Source: Mytilus edulis (taxonomy: Eukaryota). From it: a stretch of DNA of 64,000 nt. The DNA lies in contig NC_092351.1 in NCBI RefSeq assembly GCF_963676685.1, positions 20,212,001 to 20,276,000 on the forward strand. Reading direction: 5' to 3'. The notes below the pieces were generated by a model, which saw only the letters and a list, made by a program, of their open reading frames with translations, was not told where the DNA came from and did no database searches. The position numbers and the translations under genes are program-made. Of the stretch, positions 1-51,700 are shown in pieces (position 1 is the first letter of the stretch; every line of letters begins with the position of its first letter).

Positions 1-1956
1 TTGACAAATCTGGTTCGCTGACTTGTGACATGAACAATAAAAATATATTTGATATTTGAAACGGGGAAATATGTTCTGGTTCATCATAAGGAGTTGAAAA
101 ATATCGCTAGATATATAAAAGCTATAATTATGTAGTATACGTTTCAAAACATTAAAACTGATCAAAACTTGCATGGATTTTGATGTGCAGTTTTTTTCCA
201 GTCTGCAGAAGATAGCAAAATAAACAAACACCGGAGTTTCATTTGATACGGCCCACTCCGTTACACAGTTTAAAATACCTATTGTTTGCAGATGTCTGTT
301 GTACATTAAATCAATAATACTCACAACATCAATTATCTTTCCGCCATTTTAGTTTATTTTGGCACCTTTTGCAGGAATGGAAAAAAAAACTGAATAACAA
401 AATCTAGTTAAGTTTTGTAATTTTCTGAAACACGAAATGCATTTAAAATTTATATGTCTAGTTCCTGCCATCCCTTAAAACTTTTGCAGATGCATAGGTA
501 TGTCTGTACACAGAGTAAAATTTGTGGTGTAATTGCGGCCATTTTAGCCAGAAGGTTATGATGAACCTTGGACAACAACCCGACCAAAGAGTAGACAACA
601 AAGAGTACATAATAAATTAGGACACCGAATCCTAGTGGCAACTTTAAATTAACAGAACAATGATCGTGAAAATAGAGGCAAATTGTGTACTTGTATCGAG
701 CGGTAAATTCAATCTTAAATATTCCTGGTCCGCGCAATTTACATAAGAAAAAATAGCTCTACTACTTTTAATTATGCAAATTCATCAGCACCTTGGAGTT
801 GTATGAGCTGTAACGCAGTAAATCACTCTACCATACCTTTTCCATCAACAATTGTAATGTTCCTCTGATACTTTTATTAAATTATTTATCTTGCAGATCT
901 TAAAAATAGATTCAAAATTACATTCAAGCTGCCGCTACATGTCAGTGCATACACTCTTGTATAAATAATAGTGTATGTAGTATTTTTTTTTGTTGAAAAC
1001 GCAAATGATTTTTTTTTTTTTACAATAACTGTCATCATATGGTCATATTTATGTTGAATTTCATTCGATGGACAATGTTATTAACATCCGTGTTGGTGTT
1101 GCTTTTCATAAATTTTTGGTTTCAAAACAAACAAAACGGACTGATATACATAGACAAAACCGGATGATTGTGGCGTAAACAATATTGACCAAACCGGCCT
1201 CTTCCATTTTTACATGACCCATTTCAGTCTTTCATTCCATTCACAGATATACAAGTATTGAGGTTCTCAAAGTGGCTAGTTTTGTAATCTCCGTGTCAAT
1301 ATCTTTCTGTTCATACCTTTCTTCTCGTACAATATGAACAATTTAAGGATTATGTACCCTTGTATTTCTTCAATGCTAAACATGGAAATTTTATAGAAAA
1401 TCTACAGCCATTCCCCTTGTGCTCTCATATTTGGTAATTCAGTACTTGATAGATAGAGGATTATTGCATGCAGTGCTAGCGATGATTTCCTTTAAACAGG
1501 TTTATGAATTTATATATTGGTTAAGGTTTATGTACCCTTCTCACTGGGGTAAAGCTGATGACCGTAACTGCATTCACGGTCATCCCAAGATGTCGGATGA
1601 AAAATTAGGTCAGTTTCTGTATTGTCTGTTAAAGTGTTTCTATATCATTTTCTTTACAAATCATACATTGAAACGATGTAAATTTATAAAAGAATCACTC
1701 GAAAATCACTAATTACTTCCGAGAAATGTGCATGAAACGGGAAATTCGATTTGAAAAAATCGTTAAGATGACCGTAAATCATAATCAAAATATTTTCAAG
1801 ATGACCGTAACATAAAACAAGGATGACCGTGATTGGTAAAAAGATGACCGTAACTTGTAAAGGATGACCGTAGTTTGTAAAGACTGACTGTAATTTATAT
1901 AGGACGAACGTAACTTTTATAGGATGACCATCAATTCTAAGTATTGTATTCAAAGC

Positions 1957-2594
1957 TTTTTTGTTGAGTTTGTCGATCTCAATAAGGGCTCGGTTAGCGG
2001 ATACAAAAATGTCGGTTATTCATTTGGGGATGTACGGCGGGCGGGCGGGCGGGTTCGGGCAGCAATCAAATGTTGTCCGTGCATTAACTCATGAACCGTT
2101 CAACCAAAGCTTTTAAAATTTTAATATGTTGTTACTAACAACTAAATGAAGGTCAAGTTCAATAATGGCGATTTTGACTTTTACCGTTCAGGAGTTATGG
2201 TTCTTTAAAGATTGAAAAATGGAGTTTCCAGTCGTGTCCGTGCATTTACTCATGCACTGTTCTACCTAAGCTTCCCAAATTTTAATATGTTGTTACTGAT
2301 GACAAAATGGAGGTCGAGTTCAATAATGACGATTTTGACTTTTACAGTTCAGGAGTTATGGTTCTTGAAAGATTGTGAAATGGCGTTTCCATTCACGTTG
2401 TTGCATTTACTCATGAACCATTCAATCTAAGCTTTTCAAATTTTAAGATGTTGATACTGATGACAAAATGGAGGTCAAATTTAAAATTGACGATTTTCAC
2501 TTTCACCATTCATCAGTAATGGTTCTTGTGATATTGCCAGGACACAAATAAATATTAATAAATCCGGTTTGCTGTCGTTGTGACAGCCTCTTGT
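1957..2594 (+). repeat. Helentron/HINE-like non-autonomous element with (GGGC)n and internal tandem units
   Basis: T-run start, GGGCGGGCGG microsatellite, three related internal units, CTCTTGTT end. Confidence 0.5.
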
Positions 2595-2734
2595 TTTGAA
2601 CTATAATATAATTGGCCATATTTAGGATTTATAACAATGATAGTAAATTGCATCTTTCTCGTAAACAATGAAATATTTATTGATATCGACGTTAAAATTT
2701 TAACACAAATTGACAGCGATACGACGAAAATTTG

Positions 2735-2982
2735 AAGAAACATGAATATGTCCCTAGTACACGGATGCCTCATCTACACTATCATTTTCTATGTTTAGTG
2801 GACAATGAAAATGGGATAAAACTGTAATTTGGCTTTAGAATTAAAAAGATCATACCATAGGGAAAATGTGTACTAAGTTTCAATTTTATTTAACTTGAAG
2901 CTGGACAAACGGACAAACAGACGAACGGACGAACGTACGCACAGACCAGAAAAACATAATGCCAATAAATGGAGCATTAAAA
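2735..2982. repeat. Dispersed HINE-like repeat (related copies at 30310-30772 and 42325-42650)
   Basis: Shared ...TAGTACACGGATGCC...CACTATCATTTTCTATGTT...(GGAC/AGAC)n...GCAT(T)AAAAA. Confidence 0.6.
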
Positions 2983-3323
2983 ACATTAATAATACATACG
3001 AATATTTGGTAATCGAGCCCATGTGTATGGTTCCAGATGAAGCAGATTAAAATCTTAATTTGTCTTGATATATGCAGGCAGAAACACTTTTGAAATAGAA
3101 CAAAAGAATCGAAGCTCTGTGTATATCGAGAAAGCGATAAATGTTAACTGTAATGTTTGATATAGTAACAAAATTTTAAAAAGTTAATAGAAACAAATAA
3201 AACGACAATTTTCTTATTTTAAAAACACCATTTGCATAAGTTTTCAATGTATCTATTACATAGCAAAACAATAAGATATAAAGTCGACGATATAAAGTCG
3301 ACGACATGGTTCTTATCGGGGAC

Positions 3324-3460
3324 TTTTATAGCTGACTATGCAGTATGGGCTTTGCTCATTGTTGAAGGCCTTACGGTTACCTATAGTTGTTAATGTTTGT
3401 GTCATTTTGGTCTTTTCTGGATAGTTGTCTCATTGGCAATAATACCACATCTTCTTTTTT
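3324..3460. repeat. Short dispersed repeat (also 61058-61192; degenerate near 18000-18125 and 57590-57725)
   Basis: GACTATGCAGTATGGGCTTTGCTCATTGTTGAAGGCC...GTTGTCTCAT...ACCACATCTTC shared between copies. Confidence 0.7.
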
Positions 3461-6100
3461 ATATATAGTATCTAAAGTTGGATGTAAAAAATGCATAACC
3501 TCCGATTTTTTTTTATCACGGACGGAGAACATATCAATCTTTTAGTTCAGAAATTTTCGTGTCTGCCCTTCCATTATGTGAAACAAGAAAAAATTCCCCA
3601 AAACAGGTAACGATTGTATCGAAAAGAGAAAAATCGAGTGCACCTTTTCATGTTAGGGCATGTTTGGGGTGTATATTTTGTCTTTAAAACGTACAAAGCA
3701 AGAGTATTTTATATAGCATATCGCTTCAGATTCTATCATTATTATATATCAAAGCTACAGGTTGACTTTATAACGTAAAAAAATGACAGTACGAAAAGAT
3801 GAAATATATGGGTCAAGTGAGATACCTATCTAATGAATCACAAAAACAGAGTAGGTGTGTTCGAATAGCTATTTTTTTCTAAAAGTACTTGACGACAGTC
3901 TTAATTTGGATGATGAAAATGGATATCTTCGAAAAAATATGATTTTCTTGTGTGTGATAACTAGGGTTTATAATCTTCAACCACTGTTTAGTTTGCCCTT
4001 CCACGAAATATTTAATTAGAATTATTTTAAATGCTTAAGAATTTTCAAAAATTCCATCTGACATCCGAACAGACAATATTTTTAAGTTGAATCAATGCAG
4101 ACAAGATCATTAACTAATGCTCATTAGCTAGTAGATACATTTGTCTTTTAAAGTATAACTGACATATAACGATCGATCGTAATGGTGCTATGTGGTTAAA
4201 TTTATCAGTTTTCAAGAGCAAAATTGGCAGAGCGTCATCCCTACAATGGCTTCCATTTCTACGATTGTGGGCATGAACTGGCGTAATGGGGAGATAATTT
4301 TGAAGAAGTAGAATCCTGACTGTATGAATAACATTTCTGTATATATACAAATTGACAACGTTCCGCCTTGTGATACGCTTTTCGTACAATACTATTTTAA
4401 GGATCTACTTTGCTAGAGCTCACCTTCACTAGTTTATTCGAATGATATTTTCAAAATGTTTCTGTTATTTTATTTGCACGACAAAATGAAAGACGATATA
4501 ATATCAATGGGTGTACATGCAATTTTTTGGCATTTTTAAAAATGTGTATTTATTATATGTCATTAAAAGGAATCCCAGAAACAAACAAAAATCTTTTGTC
4601 GAGCAGTTGAAGGCTGTGCACCCCATTTTTTTTTTATTATGCTTGTAAGGTGTCATTTTATCGCGCTTTTGTGGCATGTTTTCCCTTCCTGTTCATTTGC
4701 ATGTCTTTTGGCAATCATTTCATACAAAAAGATAGTTGTATAATTACGGATATTTCTTAGAATTGAGGGTCATCCTTTAAAAGTTACGGTCATCATTTAC
4801 AAATTACGGTCATCTTAAAAGCAGTTACGGTCAGCCTTGTTATGAATCGCTGATTCTGTTACGGTCATCTCGATTGTGATTTACGGTCATCTTGGCGATT
4901 TTTTCAAATCGAATTTCCCGTTTCATGCACATTTTTCAGAAGTAATTAGTGATTTCCGAGTGATTCTTTTATAAATTTACATCGTTTCAATGTATGATTT
5001 GTAAAGAAAATGATATAGAAACACTTTATCAGACAATACAGAAACTGACCTAATTTTTCATCCGACATCTTGGGATAACCGTGAATGCAGTTACGGTCAT
5101 CAGCTTTACCCCAGTGCTTCTGTAGCCATTTTTGTACGAATTTTTCAAACCTCAATTGTATCAAAACTAAAGATATAATAAATAATAGAGATAGGCCATT
5201 TAGTACATGTTCCAAGGGGAAAATTGATGCAAAGCATTATTTTTTACTGTTTCATTGCATTTGATAGTAAAAGAGGACTTTGTGGCAAATAAATCAAGAT
5301 TTTTATAGAAAATCCACAGCCTTTAATACAGAGATTTTTGTTATAAAATTTGAAACATAAATTACTCACTTGATTTTCTATGATGTGCTAGTGTTTATTT
5401 TTTACAAAAAGTTCTAAGAAACCTGTAAATTCCAAAACACCTCGTGCTAAGTCACTAAAGTCGAGCGCACCCTAAACGGTGTACTTGATTTTGGCCATAT
5501 TTATACTTGTCTTAACCAGAAACTACATTTATAAACTTGTTTTAAGAAAATCAATGCTAGCACTGCATGCAATAATCCTATATCTATCAGTCATCAAATT
5601 GCCAAATATGAGAGTACAAGGATAAAGGCTGTGGATTTTTTTTTTAAAATCTTGATTTATTTGCCACAAAGTCCTCTTTTTCTATTAAATGCAATGGAAC
5701 ATAAAAAAATAATGCTTTGCCTCAAGTTTCCCCTTGGAATGTGTACAAAATGGCCTATCTCTATTATTCATTATATTTGTAGTTTTGATACAATTGAAGT
5801 TTGAAAAGTTCGTACGTAACAAAAATGGCTACAGAAGGGTACATAAACCTTAAAATAAATATAAATATGGACTAATTCAAGTACACCTTCTAGGGTGCGC
5901 TCGATTTTAGTGACTCAGCACGAGGTGTTTTGGAATTTAAAGGGTGTTTAGGATTTTTTGAAAACAATAAAGGCTAGCTGATCATAAAAAAAAAACAAGT
6001 GAGTAAACTATGTTTCAAAGTTTATAACAAAAAATCTCTGTATTAAAGTGTGGATTTTCTACAAAATTCTTCATTTAATTTTCACCATATTCCCTTTTAC

Positions 6101-6139
6101 CAAGGATTTGTATAGTATACTATACTATACAAATCCTTG
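6101..6139. mobile_element. P-superfamily-like excision footprint or mini-element (17-nt TIR + 5 + 17-nt TIR; 7-bp TSD)
   Basis: CTTTTAC|CAAGGATTTGTATAGTA-TACTA-TACTATACAAATCCTTG|CTTTTAC. Confidence 0.7.
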
Positions 6140-6668
6140 CTTTTACTATTAAATGCAAAGAAACTATAAATAATTATGCTTATCACGAAGTTTCCCCCTG
6201 GTATATGTACGAATCGGCCCATCTCTATTATTTATTATCTTTGCTGTTTTGATACTATTGCAGTTTGAAAAGTTCATAATTCACAGGCCACAGAAGGGGT
6301 CATAAACCTTAACGAGATATTAAACAAATTTGAGGCAAGGTTCACTCAATTCGTCATTTTGACATGCATTTTTACTTATTTCTCCGTTAATGTTGAACAG
6401 TTGTAGAAAATATTAATATATGTGAACACATTCTTCGGTATCATAAAAATAACAAATAAATAAACAAATCAACTTTTTCTCTATCCGATTATGTTCTGTC
6501 ACCGTGCTGGATATTAAATACCATCAAGTCCAAACATTTTGTGTCGATGTGGTTTGGACACAGTGTTTCTGATGGTATAAAAAAAAACACCGAATTTTTC
6601 AGCAATGACCTAGGTTATCAAGTTTACAGGCACGATAGAAACAGACCCCCATGGGAAGTACTTATTGC

Positions 6669-17526: not shown

Positions 17527-19275
17527 CTGAAATAAATAAACGTAGTATTGTTAAATTAGTTCTTTTGGATTCAAGTTTATAATATGATTTAGGAAATAAA
17601 AGATTTAAAGATTAAAAAACAAATATTGAAAAATAGGATCCTCTCAATATTGTTTCATATAATATTATGCTATTCAATGAAAGTACAGTGTTAAATATAT
17701 GTCGTTATTTATTTGTGTCTTTAGTGTTTCTGTTACTTGATTTTCTTGTTTAAACCCGATCTGGTGAGTTTACATGTGTGGCATGGTTAAGGCGAAGAAG
17801 AGATTGGGGAACCCGCAAACATGTTTTACTCCGCAATATTTTGTATATACTGTCTCAAGTTAAGTGTCTGTAATTCCGTGAATATCGTATGTAACTGTGT
17901 ATCATATTTTGCTATTTATTTTGGACAGAAATTAGCTGATGATTTTCTAATTGGAATTCCTATACATTGAATTTTGTCGCAGCCTTTTATATCATGCTAA
18001 GAAATATGGTTTTGCTCATTGTTGAATGTTGAAGGCCTCTTGATGACAAATAGCTGCTAACATCTACGTCATTTGATCTCAGGTGGATAGTTATCTCATT
18101 GGCAATCATACTGCATCTACTTATAACATATTACTACATTGTTTGTGCGTTTTTATGTCCTTCTATGTTTCAAATGGAACGATTTATGTTAATTTTGATA
18201 GTAACTCTTCATTATACACGAGAAGAATTACATAACTGAACCATGTCGAACATGAACTTAACCATGACACTAATGAACCAAACCATGACACAGATATTTC
18301 AGTAATTTTGAATTGATTGCAAAAGTAGGTATTTTTCAGAATAATTGACTGCAGTGTTATATCACGAAGATATATGTGATGTAACAGACTGTAAGAAAAT
18401 AACTTTTTTTATGCACGATAAACCAATTAGCAAGTTTTAAATTTTGACATACGCAAGCTTTGTTCTGCATTAAATCATTAACCATTAGATACCACTTGTG
18501 ATGTACTATGATATTTACTTTATACAAAGGTACTTACCAGCTTGAATTAGTGATGAGAAGTTCCGTTTACAAAATATCCCAATGTTTACATTTTGGCATT
18601 GATTGTCATCAAAAAGACTTAACACCGTCATGTCAAACTTATCCAAACTATGACAAAATCACTGTACTAAACGCTCCTCGATATGACGACCTTACTACCC
18701 GTGAGTTTTAAAGGAAAATATTTTGTAAAAGTTTACAAATATTTACCTAAGTTACGAAAATTGTTTAAAATTTACTATAAAGAGCAAAATTAAATAATTT
18801 GTTCACCAAACTTTATACTTCCTTTATCTAGAGGTGTTTGACTCTGGGAGCATAAAATTTCAGTAATCACAAGTGTGACTATGATTTTCATCTCCCAAAC
18901 ACTTCTCTAGTACCCAGATAGTTTTATAGTAATCTCAGAGTAGAACAACAAGAAATTAGTACATTTCTGGTCTATTTTGTCGCCGGAATTTCAATAGACG
19001 CTTGAGACTTTAATCAATACTGTCAAATCAACATTTTGTAATGATAATTTTCTGTTTGATTAATTCCAAATTTTATACCAGGAAGATTAAGAATTTGACA
19101 TTGAATTGTTGTAAACTGTATGTTTCTCACTAGATGTCATTTGGTCACTTGTGTTGGTTGAGTTGCCGTCTCATTGATCTAAATCTTTTATAATTTATAA
19201 ATATATGCCCACTTCAATAAGTAATTATAGGATATATTTTAGAAGAGACATATTAGTTACTAAATATATTTCTCG

Positions 19276-20290
19276 TTTTTGTCGAGCCTGCAACTTTTGT
19301 TGCAGAAAGCTCGACATAAGGATAGTGATCCGGCGGCGGCGGCGTTAGCTCACTTCTTAAAAAGCTTTATATTTTAGAAGGTGGAAGACCTGGATGCTTC
19401 ATACTTTGTATATAGATGCTTCATGTTACGAAGTTTCTGTCAGTCACATGTCCAATGTCCTTGACCTCATTTTCATGGTTAAGTGACCACTTGAAAAAAA
19501 AGTTCAATTTTTTTGTAATGTTGAATTCTCTCTTATTATAAGTAACAGGATAACTATATTTGATATGTGCGTACCTTGCAAGGTCCTCATGTCTGTCAGA
19601 CAGTTTTCACTTGACCTCGACCTCATTTCATGGATCAGTGAACAAGGTTAAGTTTTGGTGGTCAAGTCCATATCTCAGATACTATAAGCAATAGGGCTAG
19701 TATAGTCGGTGTATGGAAGGACTGTAAGGTGTACATGTCCAACTGGCAGGTGTCATCTGACCTTGACATCATTTTCATGGTTCAGTGGTTATAGTTAAAT
19801 TTTTGTGTTTTGGTCTGTTTTTCTCGAACCATATGCAATAGGTCTACTATATTTGATGTATGGAATGATTGTAAGGTGTACATGTCTAGCGGGCAGATGT
19901 CATGTGACCTTGACCTCATTTTCATGATTTAGTGGTCAAAGTTAAGTTTTTGAGTTTTGGTCTTTTTATCTAATACTATATGCCATAGGTAAACTATATT
20001 TAGTGTATGGAAATATTTTATGATCTTTATGTCGGTCGCGCAGGTTTTATTTGACTGTGACCTCATTTTCACGGTTCATTGCACAGTGTTAAGTTTTTGT
20101 GTTTTGGTCTATTTTTCTTGAACTATAAGTAATAGGTCAATTTTATATGTTGTATAGAAGCATTGTTAGCTGTACATGTCTGCCTGGCATGGTTCATCTG
20201 ACCTTGACCTCATTTTCAAGGTTCATTGGTCTGTTTAGTTATCTTGGTTAATGTTAAGTTTATATGACAGTTGTAATAAAGCTTAGCTTA
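19276..20290 (+). mobile_element. Helentron/HINE-like element with (CGG)n and ~147-150-bp tandem units, 3'-truncated
   Basis: TTTTGTCGAGC...GCTCGACA inverted repeat, CGGCGGCGG, repeated TGACCTTGACCTCATTTTCA; near-identical inverted copy at 44472-45562. Confidence 0.75.
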
Positions 20291-20999
20291 ATTTTATCAT
20301 CTTCTGCAGGGACGAAAAAAAGTGTACGGCAAATTCCAGTGAAGTGATGAATTTTCTTAATCATACAATGCATTTGAATTCTATTTATCTAGGGCATGAT
20401 ATGCCTTAAAACTTTTCCAGAAGCACAGGTTTGCCTGTACTCAGAGTAAATTTTGAGGTGAAAATACGGCCATTTTAGCCATAGGGTCCACATGAACCTT
20501 AAATGAAAGTGGCCGCATTTGTTTTCATTCTTAATATTGAAATGTAAGTTGTATTTGATGATAATACATAACATATATAAAGGTTGAGGATGAACACGCA
20601 TTCATTTTTGACAAAAAAACATCTGAAAAGTGACATTTTTGGCATATTTGATAGATTTTTCATATATAAGCTTGAATCGGAGCGTTTTTAATGCGTAAAT
20701 GAGTTAAAATCTTTTACATAAACTAATTGAATTAACTGAAATTGACACTTACATGTTTAAAAAGTGTCCAAAATCGTTTGTCATATGAACCTCTAATTTG
20801 AGGTCAAAATCGGCCCTTACCTCCTATCAAGTATTGAAACTACCTAGACTAAAAACTTTAACCAGAAGCGGGACAGACCAGAAAACATACTGCTCCTCTA
20901 CTATTGTGGTATTTAACTTGTTTTATCTATGTTTAGAGCAACTATGAAAGTTTGCCCAGAACCATAATTTAGCATATGGAGACGGAATTCATAAGGGCA

Positions 21000-42700: not shown

Positions 42701-45700
42701 TACTTTTATCGAGGTTAAATTTCTGTTTCTCATTGCCTGCCCTAATGACATAGCTAATTTCTGCATGGACAGTTGCTGCATCATCTGCATCAGTAGCCTT
42801 GACACGAACAATTATACTTCCAACTGATTTTTCTTCTGACAGGATTAATGGATGAATAGGCTGCAACAGAAAAAGTTTATAAGAATATCTGTCAGATTTC
42901 CTGTCAATATATAATTTTGTGGCAATGATTTTACATGCACTTACAGTAGAGCAAGGTTAGCTGATGATTTGACAATTAAAGGTATTACCTTTCATTTTCC
43001 TTTCAAGACAACTTAATCTATATGCATCTAGATTTTTTATTTTATTTAAATACATGTATTTCCTTGAAAATGTAGTATTCATTTGAGAAGAACAGATCTA
43101 TACTAACAATAGCAGCAGTCTTACAATGTTGAACGTAACAACCTCCCAACAAAAAAAGGCGGAAGAACAAGCACAGTAACATTACGTACAGTGAATCTTC
43201 CTTATTAATATACAACCCAATATTTATCTTTATAATGTATTATCCTGTATTATACAAACCTCATCACAGACAGGATCGTTGTCATTATCATCAAGTATCT
43301 CGATGGTAATCTTTGTCATTGTAGACATCCCTCCATCTGTAGCAGCTACAACCAGTGTATATAAGGAATCATTTTCACGGTCCAGTGGTTTATTCACAAT
43401 TACTTCCCCTGTTCCTCGTACATGAAACTTTCCAAGTTTATCCCCATCAACAATTATATACTCTACATTGGTATTAGGTCCTATGTCTTCATCTGTGGTA
43501 AACAGTTCTGTAACTACGGTACCCAAGTCAGCTCCTTCATTTACAGCTGCAATGTAAGATGGACGAGAGAAGATAGGTGGATTATCATTCTGGTCCGTTA
43601 CATCCACAAGGACTCTTGTCAAACTCTTCTGTTCTGTTTTAGCTTTTATGTCCATGGCAACAATGGTGAAATTGTATTGGTCAGTCGTTTCCCTATCTAA
43701 TGGATTAATCAATGAAATCCAGCCAGATATTGAGTCAAGGTCAAATATTTTAGACATTCCACTACTTTCCTCCCCAAAACTGTATCTAATTTCAAAGTCA
43801 GAATCTTCATCCATGGCACGAACTTGGATAACATGATCACCTGGTTTACTATTCTCTATCACCATTGTATGATACTCATTAGATTCAAATACAGGATCTT
43901 TATTATTAGAATCTGTTACTATAATTATAACCTCCACATAATCATACAATGATGGAGAACTAGTAGTCTTGGCTTGTACAGATAAATGATATTTCTGAAC
44001 ATCATTATAGTCCAACTTCCTAAGTAGTTTCAGTTTACCACTGTGACTGATTTCAAATGATGGAGGATAGTTGGTATCGGGAGTATTACCATGAATTATG
44101 TAATACTTTACTGGATTATGGCTCTCTGCAACAATAAGTCGACTAAATACCGTTTCGTCTTCAGATATTGTAAAAATCATTTTCTTGGAAGCTTGGAATC
44201 TTGGCGCAATATCATTTTTACCCATGACATAAACTTGAACAGCAACTGACGAGTCTAGTATAGGATCACCTTCATCTATAGCATGAACAAAGAATTGGTA
44301 CACTTGATTTGCTGAAAAAAAAGAAAGATATTATTATAATAATTATTTTCTTTTAATTAAATGCACTTGTATACTTTATTGAGTCAAATTCTCTTTGTGT
44401 TGGCTTTTATTTTCAAATATGAATTTCTTATAAGATCATATTTCCATTTTTCTTTCCTTCTGCTATTATACACAAGAGTGCACACGCTGAAATGTCTCGC
44501 CTTCTATACTAATCATTGATATTATGTTGAAAGTCCTAAGTATAAAGCTAAGCTTTAATACAACTGTCACATAAACTTAACATTAACCAAGATAACTAAA
44601 CAAAGACCAATGAACCTTGAAAATGAGGTCAAGGTCAGATGAACCATGCCAGGCAGACATGTACAGCTAACAATGCTTCTATACAACATATATATAGTTG
44701 ACCTATTACTTATAGTTTAAGAAAAATAGACCAAAACACAAAAAACTTAACACTGTGCAATGAACCGTGAAAATGGGGTCACGGTCATATAAAACCTGCG
44801 CGACTGACATAAAGATCATAAAATATTTCCATACACCAAATATAGATGGCCTATGGCATATAGTATTAGATAAAAAGACCAAAACTCAAAAACTTAACTT
44901 TGACCACTGAACCATGCAAATGAGGTCAAGGTCACATGACATCTGCCCGCTATATAGGTACACCTTACAATCATTCCATACAACAAATATAGTAGACCTA
45001 TTGCATATAGTATGAGAAAAACAGACCAAAACACAAAAATTTAACTATAACCACTGAACCATGAAAATGAGGTCAAGGTCAGATGACACCTGCCAGTTGG
45101 ACATGTACACCTTACAGTCCTTCCATACACCGAATATACTAGCCCTATTGCTTGTAGTATCTGAGATATGGACTTGACCACCAAAACTTAACCTTGTTCA
45201 CTGATCCATGAAATGAGGTCGAGGTCAAGTGAAAACTGTCTGACAGACATGAGGACCTTTCAAGGTACGCACATATCAAATATAGTTATCCTATTACTTA
45301 TAATAAGAGAGAATTCAACATTACAAAAAATCTGAACTTTTTTTTCAAGTGGTCACTGAACCATGAAAATGAGGTCAAGGACATTGGACATGTGACTGAC
45401 GGAAACTTCGTAACATGAGGCATCTATATACAAAGTATGAAGCATCCAGGTCTTCCACCTTCTAAAATATAAAGCTTTTAAGAAGTTAGCTAACACCGCC
45501 GCCGCCGGATCACTATCCCTATGTCGAGCTTTCTGCAACAAAAGTTGCAGGCTCGACAAAAACTGAGTTGAATCTTTTTCATAATTTGTGTGCCTAATGT
45601 CAAATTGCAAGTATTACATATTTTTAGCACTTGGACAAATATAGAAGTTAATTTAATTAAATGAAGTGTTAAAGCATTCATTATTACCAAATTCCTTCAA

Positions 45701-48700
45701 ATCCATTTTGACAATGAGATCACCAGTATAAGGATTAATGTTAAACAGTTTCTCTGGTTTAGCAAGTTCATATCTCACTCGGCCTCCTGGTCCTTTGTCC
45801 ATATCCACAGCTTCGATCTGTTTAATTAGAAAGAAAATATGTATCAAATCTTCAATTCAAAATACTGTTTCTCTTCTAACTAATGATACATACAATTTTA
45901 TTTATACGAATAGTTTAAAAAGGAAAAGATTTCAGTAATAAATTCAGGCCAAAATATGGTTAGTTCTTGTCAAATCATAAGTTATTTCCCATTTTATTAA
46001 TGAAAAATTGAGTTAAAACCCAAATATGGCCTGTAATAATTAGAATGTTAAAATTTTCCAAGTACTTTATAATACCTTTAAAAATCTGAAAAAAATTACC
46101 TTTGCAAAGGAAGAATTAACAACAGCACCAGGGGAGACAACCAGTTTATATTCGTTCCTAAGGAAACGTGGAGGATTATCATTGAGATCCCTGATGGTAA
46201 CTTCTACCATTGAAAATCCTATTCTCCCAGCATTGTCTGTTACTGCTATTGGTATCTGATAGAAATCCCGCTTCTCTCGATCAAAGTCAAACTCAGAAAA
46301 TATTTCACCTGCAAAAGACAATATGTTCTTCTTTAAAACTATTCACCATTATTGGAAAGATATTAAATTCATGCAAAAACGTCAGTGTATGAAAATTTCA
46401 CATTTAACATGTAGCTCAAATAAACACTATTGGACAAAAAGTTATACTAGGCTATACAAAAGAAAATTTTATAACAATGAATTATTTCAATTTACAAATA
46501 CTACTGTAAAATACAACAGAATTAGTTTTATATTTTAGTAATTTCTATACATTGATTAAAATATATCTATTTTTTGTTTTAATATAAATCATACCTGTAT
46601 CAGCATCAATACTGAAGTACTGCTTCATCTCGTCACTAGGTATGGTGTAAGTCAACATCCCATTGGTTCCTGGGTCCTCATCAAATGCTGTTACCATAGT
46701 GACAATCATTCCCTTCCCAAGATTCTCTAGAATGGTTGATCTATATAACTGTCTAGTGAACATTGGTGTATGGTTATTGGAACTCTTGACCGATAGGCTT
46801 ACTTGAGTGAAAGCAGTAAAAACACCGTCACTGACAGATATATTTAGAATATAAGCATGCTGGAGTAGGCCAGTACGTCTGCTGGATAGACTGATCAATC
46901 CCGTCTGCTGATTCACATGGAAAACCTGGTCAATATTACCACCAACAATACTGTACTGTAAATTACCTTCACTACAAGGGTCAGGGTCAGATGCCATTAC
47001 CTTGACAACATATGAACTGCTTGGTTGATCAAATATCGTACAATCATATGATTTCTGTACAAAGTATGGAGGATTATCATTCAAGTCTTGTAAAATTATG
47101 TGTAATGGTGCTGTTGTAAAATGCTTGTTCGACCCACCATCAGTTGCTATGGCAATGACATTGAACTCGTGCTGTTCCTCGTAATCTAACATCTTGGTGG
47201 TTACTATGTGACCAGATTCAGAATCAATTTCAAAATGGCTGACATCCTCACTGTCGATATGTGCTGGTACTAAGCTGTAGTACACAAGCCCATTGGATCC
47301 AACATCTGCATCAGTAGCAGTCACCATAGCAACAGAAGAACCAATCGGAACAGATTCTGACAGCAAACTAGTGTATTTGAACTTTGAAAATACTGGTTTA
47401 TTGTCGTTCACATCCTGAAATAGATGAATACAGATAATTTATAAAACAATTTACCTAGACTGGTGGCATACTCTATATGGAAATTAAAACCAATAGGGTT
47501 ATTTAAAATTTTTTAAAACATGCTACATAATCCCTTTTCAACCCACTTAGATGTCAATTGTTGGAGAGTTAAAATAGTAACGACAGAGCTATAACATCTA
47601 TTTTAATAGTATTACAATAGCATTGATTGTTGAATGTATTGTAAAAGAGTACCTTAGTTTGTTTAAACCAAAACATATTCAGAACTATCTATTTCACTTT
47701 TTTTTTTTTTAGATAATATTCTGCGAAAATATTATTGAATATGGGTTTTTTTTAAGCAAAGTTGATCCTTTTACAGTATATGATATCCCATGATAACTTT
47801 CAAACACTCCAATATATCTTTGTTAATAAAGGAATACTTACCACAACACTAATTCTTAGTTTTGTTTCTGCTACGGATCCAGTTTTGACATCTTTAGCTG
47901 TTAATGTAAGATCATATCCTTTTGTTGACTCATAATCTAGAGGGCTCACAACGGAAATAACACCTGAAATTCAAAGGGTAAAATATGTCATAATAAATTG
48001 GGGGGAAAATCAGTAATAGTAATGATTGTTATACCATCATTATTCTTCAAGGTATATACTGAATCAAAATACTTTTCTATTTACTCTACACAAAAACATT
48101 TACTGGTAAAATTATAAAAGAATTTGTTTAACATTTAACATCAAGACAATTTTTACAATGATAGTTTCAACAACAAAAGGCTTAACTTTTCTACTGTAAA
48201 CAATCTTTACAAGGACAATTCCAACAACAAAGAGCTAAACTTTTCTATAGTAAACAATCTTTACAAGGACAATTTCAACAACAAAGAGCTAAACTTTTCT
48301 ACTGTAAACAATCTTTACAAGGGCAATTCCAACAACAAAGAGCTAAACTTTTCTACTGTAAACAATCTTTACAAGGGCAATTCCAACAAAAAAGAGCTAA
48401 ACTTTTCTACTGTAAACAATCTTTACAAGGATAATTTCAACAACAAAGAGCTAAACTTTTCTACTGTAAACAATCTTTACAAGGGCAATTCCAACAGCAA
48501 AGAGCTAAACTTTTCTACTGTAAATAATCTTTATTACGACAATTCCAACAAAAAATAGCTAAACTTTTCTATAGTAAACAATCTTTACAAGGGCATAATT
48601 CCAACAACACAAGGTAAAACTTTTCTACTATAAAATTTCATATAACAAGTAGCTTTGTCTCAGTTTGGTCTTTATTATTGGGTTTCATTCAATTCAATTT

Positions 48701-51700
48701 ATATATTATGCTTTTCCCATGCACTGTCAAATATCATTTATGGTGAATTCTTGTTTATCTAGGCGTTGAACTTTTAAATAAGTTTTATGTGAAGTTATAT
48801 ATTTTTAACATGTCAACTGGTCAGTAAGGTAAAACTATGTATATTATGGTTACCAAACTGCCAATAATAAACCTTTAAAGAATGAACCAAATATGCATAG
48901 CAAAATATAACTGTGTTTCCAAATGTAATGTAAAAAAATATTAGTTAATTCTTGATTAACATGGTTAATACATCATCTTGTTATTATTGAATATTGAGTT
49001 ATAACAATCTGCATACAAAAATTTAGAGAAAAGAAAGAAAAAAGCAATGCTTAACTAGCCTGAAGCCATTGTGTGCTGTAATACAGAAAAGTGATTTTAG
49101 AAAACATTCTTAAAGGGAAAATTCGCGATTTTTTACTTATGGTTTAAATATGTTCATTATGACATAATATATATATTCACAAAGTTTTATCGCTATATGT
49201 GCAGTAATAAAGGAGAAATTCAATAATTAATGAAAAAATATTAACTACTTCCTGTAGGTCGTGACGTTTTCTCCTGGTTTTTGCATGCCGGGATTTAAAA
49301 TAAAATCATTAAAAGTCTTGGTTTTTAATCATATTTTACCGTTATCGTAAGCGTGCCGATGACTAATGCTATATCTAATAACCATCCGATAATAAGAAAA
49401 TAAAACGCACAGTCGTGCAGTTGTACACATTCATGAGAAAAATTTCTATATTTACCTTATATATTTCGATTTATTTTTGTAGACAGCACAAGAAATTATT
49501 ATAATTATTTATTTTTGCTTAAATTTATACTTTTTGAGACTGATAAAGTGAATAAATCAAAGTATATAACTTGAACTGTTAAGACAATATATAGGTTTCC
49601 GCTTATTGACCTTTTACTATCTACGCTATGACTTTATTTATGCGATGTGTGTATTAGTCTCCGACAATACTCGTGAAAGACCTGTATAAAGGTGAAATGT
49701 TATTTGCAGATCGGTAATTAGCTTGGTCTCTAGGGCACACCGTGCCAGGTGTGACTGTCTATTCGGATCAGTGGGTTATACGACAGGAGGTCAAGTTTAA
49801 TACACAAATTTAAAATACATTTTCAAGGTGTGAACAAATACAAGTGAATCGCCGTGGAATTTTTTAATTATATTTGGTGCTATTATTTTATTTGTATTCA
49901 AAAGAAGTTACTAAACTAAGAAATGAACCGGTTAAAGTCTGGAAACTAAATTTAGTTGTCGGAATGAAATGATATACACTCTTATCATTTATTTATATTT
50001 TCTTAAAAGGGAAAATAAAACTAGTTTTACACAAGCATTTTAATTGTCCTAAATAGGCAAAAAAATGTACGGGAACACTTAAATTTAAGACATTTGAAAG
50101 CCATGACCAAATGAAAGGTGTACCTGTATTACATTTTTACTTTTACACATAGTCTCAGATTCTAGTGAGGTCGGAAGGGTTAAATGAAATAATATAGATT
50201 ATCTGGTATCATTTGGATAATGGAAGAAGCTATACTATAAAAACAAAGAAATTTATTACCAATACACTCGAGATCAAAGGTTGTTAATTTTTCTGATCCA
50301 GTTAATTTTTACTCACATATTTTTTTTATATTTTGATTTGAGCGTGCTTGTTTTTACATGACACTTTTTTTTTCATTTCTCCTATTTCGTTGGACGAAAG
50401 CAAACCGGTAGGTACATTATATTCTGCATTTGTATAGTCCGAAGTTTCCTAATTGATATTCTTGTTTCACATGTATAATGAATGATCAATTATAAAAAAC
50501 GGCATTCATTTTGAAATATAGCACTGTTTTCTAGAGAGAAAATGAAGTCACATATGCGAGGGTATAACAGGGACGAACTGATTAAAAATAACGGAACCAA
50601 CAATTATATATAAAACGAAAGAATAAAAGTAAAATTTAATTTAGATAACATCAAGGATTTGTATAGTAAAACAAATCCTTGATAACATGGAGATTTGGTC
50701 TATACCTATTCTTATAACCACTCTTAAATTTTGTAAGATTTTGTACACAGGCTGTATATCACGGACAGTTTTATATTGGTATGGTATATTTTATACGTTT
50801 TACCTGAGCACACCTGGTTCACTCGCAATCACGCACGTGATTTATTGACCTTGTTCATTGTGTATTAAATTAAACAAGCCTGCCAGGAAGTCGACCGTTA
50901 GAATACCCGAATATGTCATTTTTACAATACCCCGGTAATTACCGATATTAAGCCATGCTGATTACAAGAAGACAAGTTTTTTTAACGTTGGTCAAGTTAG
51001 ATCAAAACCCCAAATAATCTAAAAATATACGTTAGAAAAATCTCAGTTTATAATTCCTCCACAATAAGTATCCCCGGACTTTTTTTCACTTTATTGTGAC
51101 TACTTTTGCATTATTATAGCATATATCCTATATAGTACTTGAAACTGCATCTCCGTGCCAAAAATGTAAATTTAGTGACGAGCTAAAACCAATAAAATTG
51201 AGAATCAATGGAAATGGGAATGTACGATCTTTTGTCATTTACAGCTTTTCAACCTGACTTCACCATTGTACGCTGAATATTTAACCCTCTAAAAAAATTA
51301 AGATTAATTTTTTGAAATATTCTTATCAATCTTAGTGAACCATTACTTGATTTGATGATTTTGGAAACTATGTAGACTTCTTCCATTACTTGGTCGGCTG
51401 GAACATCCATCAGTTTGACAAGTCATTTGAACACTGATTAACGGACATGTCATGCTGGATACTAGGACTTTGTGGTAATTAGATATCCGTGGTCATTAGT
51501 TTTCAAGATGGCGTCTTCCCGAGAATTGAGAGTCGATTTTAAAAAGCTAATAACTCACTTATCTAGACGAATAAACCTTTAATATTTTGGGAATATGCTT
51601 ATTTATTTAGGATAAACATAATATCAAATTTTATTTTTTTTGCGAATTTTCCCTTTAACTGAGTTTGAAGTCCAAATAAGTTATCTTATGTTAAAATGTT

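Follow-up and report, generated by a model that had tools for sequence, protein, structure and literature searches.

Probable excision scars of a P-type transposon family in Mytilus edulis suggest a staggered cut 20 nt inside the terminal inverted repeats

Transposon remnants and host repeats in the window

The window, a stretch of 64,000 nt of the Mytilus edulis genome (NC_092351.1, positions 20,212,001 to 20,276,000), carries a 39-bp insert in one arm of a host repeat (Table 1). Two 17-nt arms, the second exactly inverse to the first, enclose a 5-nt filler, and exact 7-bp direct repeats flank the insert, in full agreement with the preliminary description. The 17-mer of the arms has three exact matches within the window; with up to 3 mismatches, four matches were found versus a mean of 0.56 in shuffled sequences, and four were reached in none of 100 shuffles. 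The heptamer CTTTTAC is single in the host-repeat paralogues and in empty-form contigs of other individuals, indicating that its duplication is a true target site duplication (TSD). The preliminary description had drawn this conclusion from one paralogue, rightly, with coordinates (5266–5272) that were off by one.

Comparison with public sequencing runs revealed that exactly 46 bp are absent at this insertion from contigs in three of four runs, with 7 ambiguous letters. One 239-nt public contig joins both flanks of the site with no other letters on either side and, judged from its sequence, is likely the orthologous empty allele; the runs containing this stretch include mollusc metagenomes. 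The empty-form contigs make it likely that the 39-bp insert is polymorphic. Another scar of this family, with arms of 18 and 11 nt, sits inside a multi-copy host repeat, and its empty form is present in contigs from two runs (X19 and X10). An allele with a full-length element was found at neither site among the listed contig matches of four public runs each (six different runs for both sites together; repeats dominate the matches), an absence that is no evidence that such alleles do not exist.

The first site thus shows two terminal stubs within an intact TSD together with an empty pre-insertion site, as is expected of a P-type footprint, and we are highly confident that the 39-bp insert is the repair scar of an excised P-superfamily transposon. 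Its filler likely arose by templated insertion during end joining or by later slippage. As a single scar, it is ordinary and probably has no function.

Table 1. Coordinates of features in the window (counted from its first letter) and of related elements elsewhere in the genome
Feature	Position	Strand	Remarks
Left TSD copy, 7 bp, CTTTTAC	6094..6100	+	single in paralogues and other individuals' contigs
Left stub, nt 1-17 of the parent's 35-bp TIR	6101..6117	+	
Filler TACTA, 5 nt	6118..6122	+	tandem repeat of the right arm's first 5 nt (read in the sequence)
Right stub, TIR nt 1-17, inverted	6123..6139	-	
Right TSD copy, 7 bp, CTTTTAC	6140..6146	+	
Host repeat arm, recipient of the insertion	5983..6296	.	
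Host-repeat paralogue, inverted	near 5117-5385		
Host-repeat paralogue, direct	near 5637-5815		
Empty paralogous site	5267..5273	-	single CTTTTAC
Second empty paralogous site	5676..5682	+	single CTTTTTC
Second scar, same family, 30 bp	50652-50681; with TSDs 50645..50688	+	arms 18 + 11 nt; exact 7-bp repeats ATAACAT
Nested inverted-repeat elements	1397-5815		
250-bp TIR pair	1542-1791 / 4867-5116		96%; appears inserted in a copy of the host-repeat family
Inverted repeat copies	19275-20292 and 44542-45563		96% identical; 147-bp tandem units; 24 kb apart
Tandem array	48038-48685		period 54 bp
P-type elements with a second convergent ORF	G000:C3:6.92 Mb, C10:60.59 Mb, C11:7.52 Mb, C6:47.38 Mb, C4:31.89 Mb, C1:37.77 Mb		loci L199-L204, L074, L209-L218

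The scar family and its parent elements

Genome-wide searches (1.37 Gb) recovered 1,824 exact matches to the window 17-mer and 1,490 loci of short two-ended copies, defined by two 9-nt ends within 48 bp (control, 0 in both searches); the latter count is inflated by host-repeat amplification, a sample of 50 loci collapsing to 44. Full-length ends gave 105 exact 34-nt matches, which correspond to at most about 52 elements with both ends intact, at a ratio of more than 25 scars per such element. The parents are elements of 4–14 kb with terminal inverted repeats (TIRs) of 35–37 bp and 7-bp TSDs, and most long copies are non-coding, about 4.2 kb long, with perfect 35-bp TIRs. An exact 7-bp TSD was observed in 17 of the 18 long copies checked, and an 8-bp TSD in none of them. 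Three subfamilies are told apart by an A, G, or T at TIR position 17 (A17, G17, and T17), with TIRs of 35 bp in A17 and T17 and of 37 bp in G17. Scars and parents have a common target preference for T at TSD position 2 and A at position 6, and the CA...TG termini and 7-bp TSDs agree with the P superfamily, in which TSDs measure 7–8 bp. The proposal that the window insert derives from this superfamily was borne out by parents that combine these very ends, 7-bp TSDs, and a P-type transposase.

Several long copies have a complex structure. A non-autonomous copy of the scar family contains a nested reverse-transcriptase ORF (PF00078; L073:241-2130), and three autonomous G17 elements (L200, L202, L203) contain, at one shared internal position, a 30-bp remnant with both ends of their own family and without a clean TSD. 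At G000:C10:60587087-60643278 (L201, L202, L287, L288), two G17 elements with identical ORFs lie inverted to each other; one flank, in inverted form, borders the first element on either side and recurs at the third end, and only the fourth end differs, an arrangement that looks like an element-driven rearrangement.

The genome also holds a very young P family of 8.15 kb with perfect 606–607-bp TIRs and 8-bp TSDs (L209-L214; G000:C4:31888478-31896631 and others), 10 copies of which have identical search scores and whose long TIRs are Galileo-like. Short scars numbered 0 both in this 8.2-kb family (606-bp TIRs) and in a 12.8-kb family with 14-bp TIRs, and for three further transposase loci no TIRs were found within 10 kb on each side.

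Heterogeneity of the short copies and a same-site pair

To describe the short copies, we took the 50 loci that head the list of 1,490, located in the first 26.6 Mb of contig C1, of which 44 were independent after collapse by flank similarity. These 44 loci comprise 40 distinct sequences of 24–45 bp, without the homogeneous length and internal sequence of a MITE, and at least 6 of the 7 TSD letters are kept at 35 of them. The junctions are blunt, joined at microhomology, or filled with a few nucleotides. In a larger, 20-mer-enriched set of 68 independent loci, forms of 35 bp (8 loci) and 39 bp (4 loci) are recurrent, and the same geometries recur separately in all three subfamilies. One 35-bp scar (TSD CTGGAAC) has been amplified 7 times as a passenger of its host repeat (L028, L091, L092, L095, L096, L143, L165).

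Analysis of the region G000:C1:53.80-53.81 Mb revealed a 1.4-kb flank that runs, with the TSD ATTAAAT, into a long element. An inverted copy of this flank, 98.6–99.6% identical, lies 630 bp beyond the long element, and there the same ATTAAAT stands on both sides of a 35-bp scar. The identical TSD and the duplicated flank indicate that one insertion site is seen both with a long element and with a scar, in what is our most direct sign of a scar origin and the only clean same-site pair, at a rearranged locus where the far element end lacks nt 1–8. The layout resembles an inverted duplication produced by sister-chromatid (hybrid-element) transposition, a mechanism that may have acted here. A second candidate pair (L219/L132) was rejected; its hosts are only about 85% alike, so that two separate insertions into a favoured position of a common repeat are equally likely. 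The heterogeneity of the short copies and the same-site pair uphold the earlier view of them as excision scars rather than a fixed mini-MITE.

Arm lengths and the depth of the cut

The preliminary description had predicted that arms would be capped near 17 nt genome-wide and had proposed the cleavage chemistry of Drosophila, with its 17-nt stagger. Neither was supported, as arm lengths cluster at 20 nt and fall off beyond it. Exact matches to TIR prefixes number 1,824 (17 nt), 866 (19 nt), 701 (20 nt), 210 (21 nt), and 132 (22 nt), corresponding to a survival of 0.69 per base from nt 17 to 19, 0.81 for the step to nt 20, and 0.30 for the step to nt 21; once the 132 longer ends are subtracted, the last two values become 0.78 and 0.14. 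Divergence within long ends is just 0.7% per base, and the G17 and T17 subfamilies show the same drop past nt 20 (281 to 83). Among the arms of the 44 independent loci, 18 extend to nt 20 and 13 of these end at that base, while the fractions stopping earlier are 18/55 at nt 17 (inflated, since the scoring left TIR position 17 free), 13/37 at nt 18, and 6/24 at nt 19, and only 5 of 88 arms are longer than 20 nt.

Longer products were sampled from the 132 matches to the TIR 22-mer, which gave 68 loci, 30 of them with a TSD-matched partner end within 1 kb. In the one-sided products of this sample (long arm of at least 30 nt, n = 16), the short arm measures 20 nt in 8, 21 nt in 2, and 12–19 nt in 6 cases, and is never longer. 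This distribution is highly improbable under a 17-nt tail plus chance extension (P about 3e-14) and weakly separated from a 19-nt tail plus a chance base (P = 0.015). By analogy with the fly, the one-sided copies look like products of aborted gap repair, in which the unextended tail would mark the cut. Among 78 listed short copies, 20+20 joins recur and 19+19 joins are absent.

In a minor class, made up of 7 of the 30 paired copies, both arms measure 21–23 nt (23+21 and 22+23), lengths not expected from a strict 20-nt tail. Scars of 44–45 bp with such arms lie at L031, L047, L059, L220, L228, L244, and L245. Arms ending at nt 23 occur at about 11 of the 68 22-mer loci, versus about 490 ends stopping at nt 20, and this class may reflect a minor second cut at nt 23 or short two-sided synthesis.

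Tails of 17, 19, 20, and 23 nt could not be told apart by their self-pairing energy. Inspection of the TIR revealed that nt 2–8 are repeated exactly at nt 20–26 (7 nt; P = 0.006 in 20,000 shuffles, post hoc); such an internal terminal repeat spans 5 nt in the 8.2-kb family and is lacking in the 12.8-kb family, neither of which has scars. Taking the arm lengths together, we consider it probable (roughly 0.8) that the transposase of the scar family cuts 20 nt inside each 35–37-bp TIR, not 17 nt as in Drosophila, a depth read from repair products whose stubs bound the cut indirectly. The 17+17 arms of the window copy are likely a trimmed product, and their match to the fly's 17 nt is likely coincidental.

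Alternative origins of the short copies

A Drosophila-like 17-nt cut, with longer arms added by short gap-repair synthesis, would agree with the 17+17 arms of the window copy, with the many arms that end at 14–18 nt, and with gap repair being clearly active in this family. Such synthesis would have no reason to halt at nt 20 in three subfamilies, and the excess of exact 20-nt over 21-nt ends, like the 10 of 16 one-sided products with a short arm of 20–21 nt and none longer, makes this explanation very improbable. A 19-nt tail with a frequently added A, or variable cutting at nt 20 and 23, comes closer to the data: the 39-bp form is readable as 19+1+19, the internal repeat begins at nt 20 so that a cut after nt 19 would expose the whole of it, and the 21–23-nt arms would fit variable cutting. 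The lack of blunt 19+19 joins among the 78 listed short copies, in which 20+20 joins recur, and a survival from nt 19 to 20 far above chance argue against the former, and the small number of nt-23 ends relative to those at nt 20 against the latter, so that we regard this pair of explanations as unlikely. A single main cut at nt 20 remains our preferred reading.

The short copies might also have been inserted as such by the transposase, as a mobile mini-MITE or solo-end unit, which would explain why the 35- and 39-bp forms recur, why the exact TSDs carry the parent's target preference, and why only empty and short alleles were found at the window site. The diversity of lengths and sequences at the 44 loci, the separate recurrence of the same geometries in three subfamilies, the one-sided gap-repair products, and the long element and scar at one site all speak for excision instead, and a unit of at most 40 bp would be expected to fall apart under deep staggered cuts; insertion as a mini-element is thus very unlikely. 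Inverted repeats can promote internal deletion, and microhomology is present at many junctions, so a transposase-free origin was also considered, namely replication slippage or hairpin deletion between the inverted repeats of a long element. Such deletions would not halt at nt 20 of a perfect 35-bp TIR, and the two other P families, one with 606-bp TIRs, have no short copies, although these may just be rarer or younger; we find this origin scarcely credible. Excision followed by repair of 20-nt tails is the reading that we carry forward.

Parent transposase and a convergent second ORF

A 9.8-kb copy with the exact ends of the window scar contains ORFs that match PF21787, PF21788, and PF21789. 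In the G17 subfamily, whose copies of 11.8–14 kb are 99–100% identical in their catalytic halves, the copy at C10:60.59 Mb has an uninterrupted ORF of 930 aa, which matches the same three Pfam families (E values of 1e-20, 5e-19, and 8e-6, respectively) and the Drosophila P transposase (PDB 6P5A, E 2.7e-16). On inspection of this alignment by eye, D303 and E531 of 6P5A are matched, D230 lies outside the aligned stretch, and all 8 of the GTP-contact residues named in PMC7776569 are identical. The parent therefore shows homology to DDE RNase H transposases and the GTP-binding insertion domain (PF21788) of the P superfamily. Pfam gave no THAP match in the long parent ORFs, and six-frame translations of 5 loci showed no motif that convinced us, although small upstream exons could escape both searches. 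Of the THAP/P transposase anticipated in a long parent, the P transposase was thus recovered and the THAP domain was not.

The transposase ORF ends about 70 aa past the catalytic Glu and, unlike the canonical Drosophila-type P element, has no fused C-terminal domain. A second, convergent ORF of 406–433 aa is present in the scar family and carries a C2H2-like finger. Its 433-aa version matches the P transposase C-terminal family PF12596 weakly (E 0.048, below the cut-off), and PDB searches gave no match for this ORF or for the N-terminal 667-aa ORF of L074. The convergent ORF contains a YIAGY...RGGL motif, which we take to be typical of P-type C-terminal domains, and on sequence grounds it is possibly a split-off C-terminal domain of the transposase. 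The 8.2-kb and 12.8-kb P families likewise have ORFs convergent with the transposase, and a fourth has a homologue upstream; in two other P families, the convergent ORF is 1,091–1,140 aa long with a Cys-rich end. Our literature search returned nothing on a convergent second ORF in P-type elements.

Proposed mechanism

In the mechanism that we propose, the transposase would cut at the 3' ends of the element and 20 nt inside on the other, non-transferred strand, so that excision would leave two identical 20-nt 3' tails on the chromosome flanks. The tails would be joined with little or no homology, often after trimming: direct fusion would yield 20+20 and 20+19 scars, joining at 1–4 nt of microhomology would yield 20+16, 17+17, and 14+14 scars, and trimming with templated fill-in would yield the 17+5+17 window copy, its 5-nt repeat being gained at joining or by later slippage. 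Aborted gap repair would pair a long arm with one that does not exceed about 20 nt. Two cuts 20 nt deep would leave no duplex in scars of up to 40 bp, which would thus be immobile end points that pile up in the genome.

A cut at nt 20 would free a 5' end that could pair, through the internal repeat, with the distal transferred strand. The likeness of this fold-back to the fly transpososome is qualitative and suggestive only, as far as the available text of PMC7776569 allows a comparison. A tentative extension, which we hold to be doubtful, is a two-gene transposase made of a THAP-less RNase H/GTP-binding subunit and a convergent zinc-finger/C-terminal-domain gene, with the inner cut placed by sequence at the internal repeat (nt 2–8 = nt 20–26). 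If it were true, the stagger would be a family-specific, DNA-encoded length readable from genomic scars.

Discussion

The long staggered cut is the most unusual step of P transposases; its order and mechanism are stated as not known in the available text of PMC7776569, and the fly enzyme is the only one for which we found a measurement (17 nt) in the literature accessible to us. For the fly, both this stagger and the products of its repair are established knowledge. Our search, which left subscription journals and Repbase outside, returned no report, in the text available, of genome-wide natural P scars or of a stagger other than 17 nt. From about 1,500 natural scars, the cut depth of a P-type enzyme not studied before would be obtained without biochemistry; the scars indicate that this depth is not fixed at 17 nt, and they also document end joining and gap repair in the germ line of a mollusc. 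Because near-identical parents carry an uninterrupted 930-aa ORF, direct tests are possible of the 20-nt prediction and of what the internal repeat and the second ORF do.

The P superfamily offers several points of comparison, given here as far as the available text of each source extends. BuT5 of Drosophila mojavensis has left a 27-bp footprint with arms of 12 and 15 bp (PMC3355041), likewise a natural both-ends remnant of a P-type element and named a footprint there, which differs from the mollusc scars in being a single copy without a family-wide length distribution or cut depth. The zebrafish Pdre2/THAP9 system is a non-fly P-like element that can be excised, with donor-site deletions reported; the stagger cited is the fly's 17 nt only, and no cut depth of the fish enzyme was found in that source (PMC10983969). 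1360/Hoppel and Galileo belong to the P superfamily and have 7-bp TSDs (PMC3698922), and the accessible part of the literature searched gave no stagger length for either. The mollusc family shares with them the 7-bp TSD and a P-type transposase, a likeness by description, and differs from Galileo, whose TIRs are long, in its short TIRs.

The closest parallel is the P element of Drosophila melanogaster. In the available text, repair of fly P donor sites gives microhomology, blunt, and templated-insert junctions with stubs capped at 17 nt (PMC2895639), and the mollusc scars share with them two TIR stubs in an intact TSD, the same three kinds of joins, and aborted gap repair followed by end joining (PMC2895639). 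Both elements encode a P-type RNase H transposase with a GTP-binding insertion (PMC7776569, as far as available). The two systems differ in the cap (17 nt in the fly, 20 nt in the mollusc), the TSD (8 and 7 bp), and the TIR (31 and 35–37 bp), and in the mollusc parents, in which our searches found no THAP domain, a separate convergent ORF holds the C-terminal-like domain. The fly data come from laboratory events, whereas the mollusc family offers about 1,500 natural scars in one genome.
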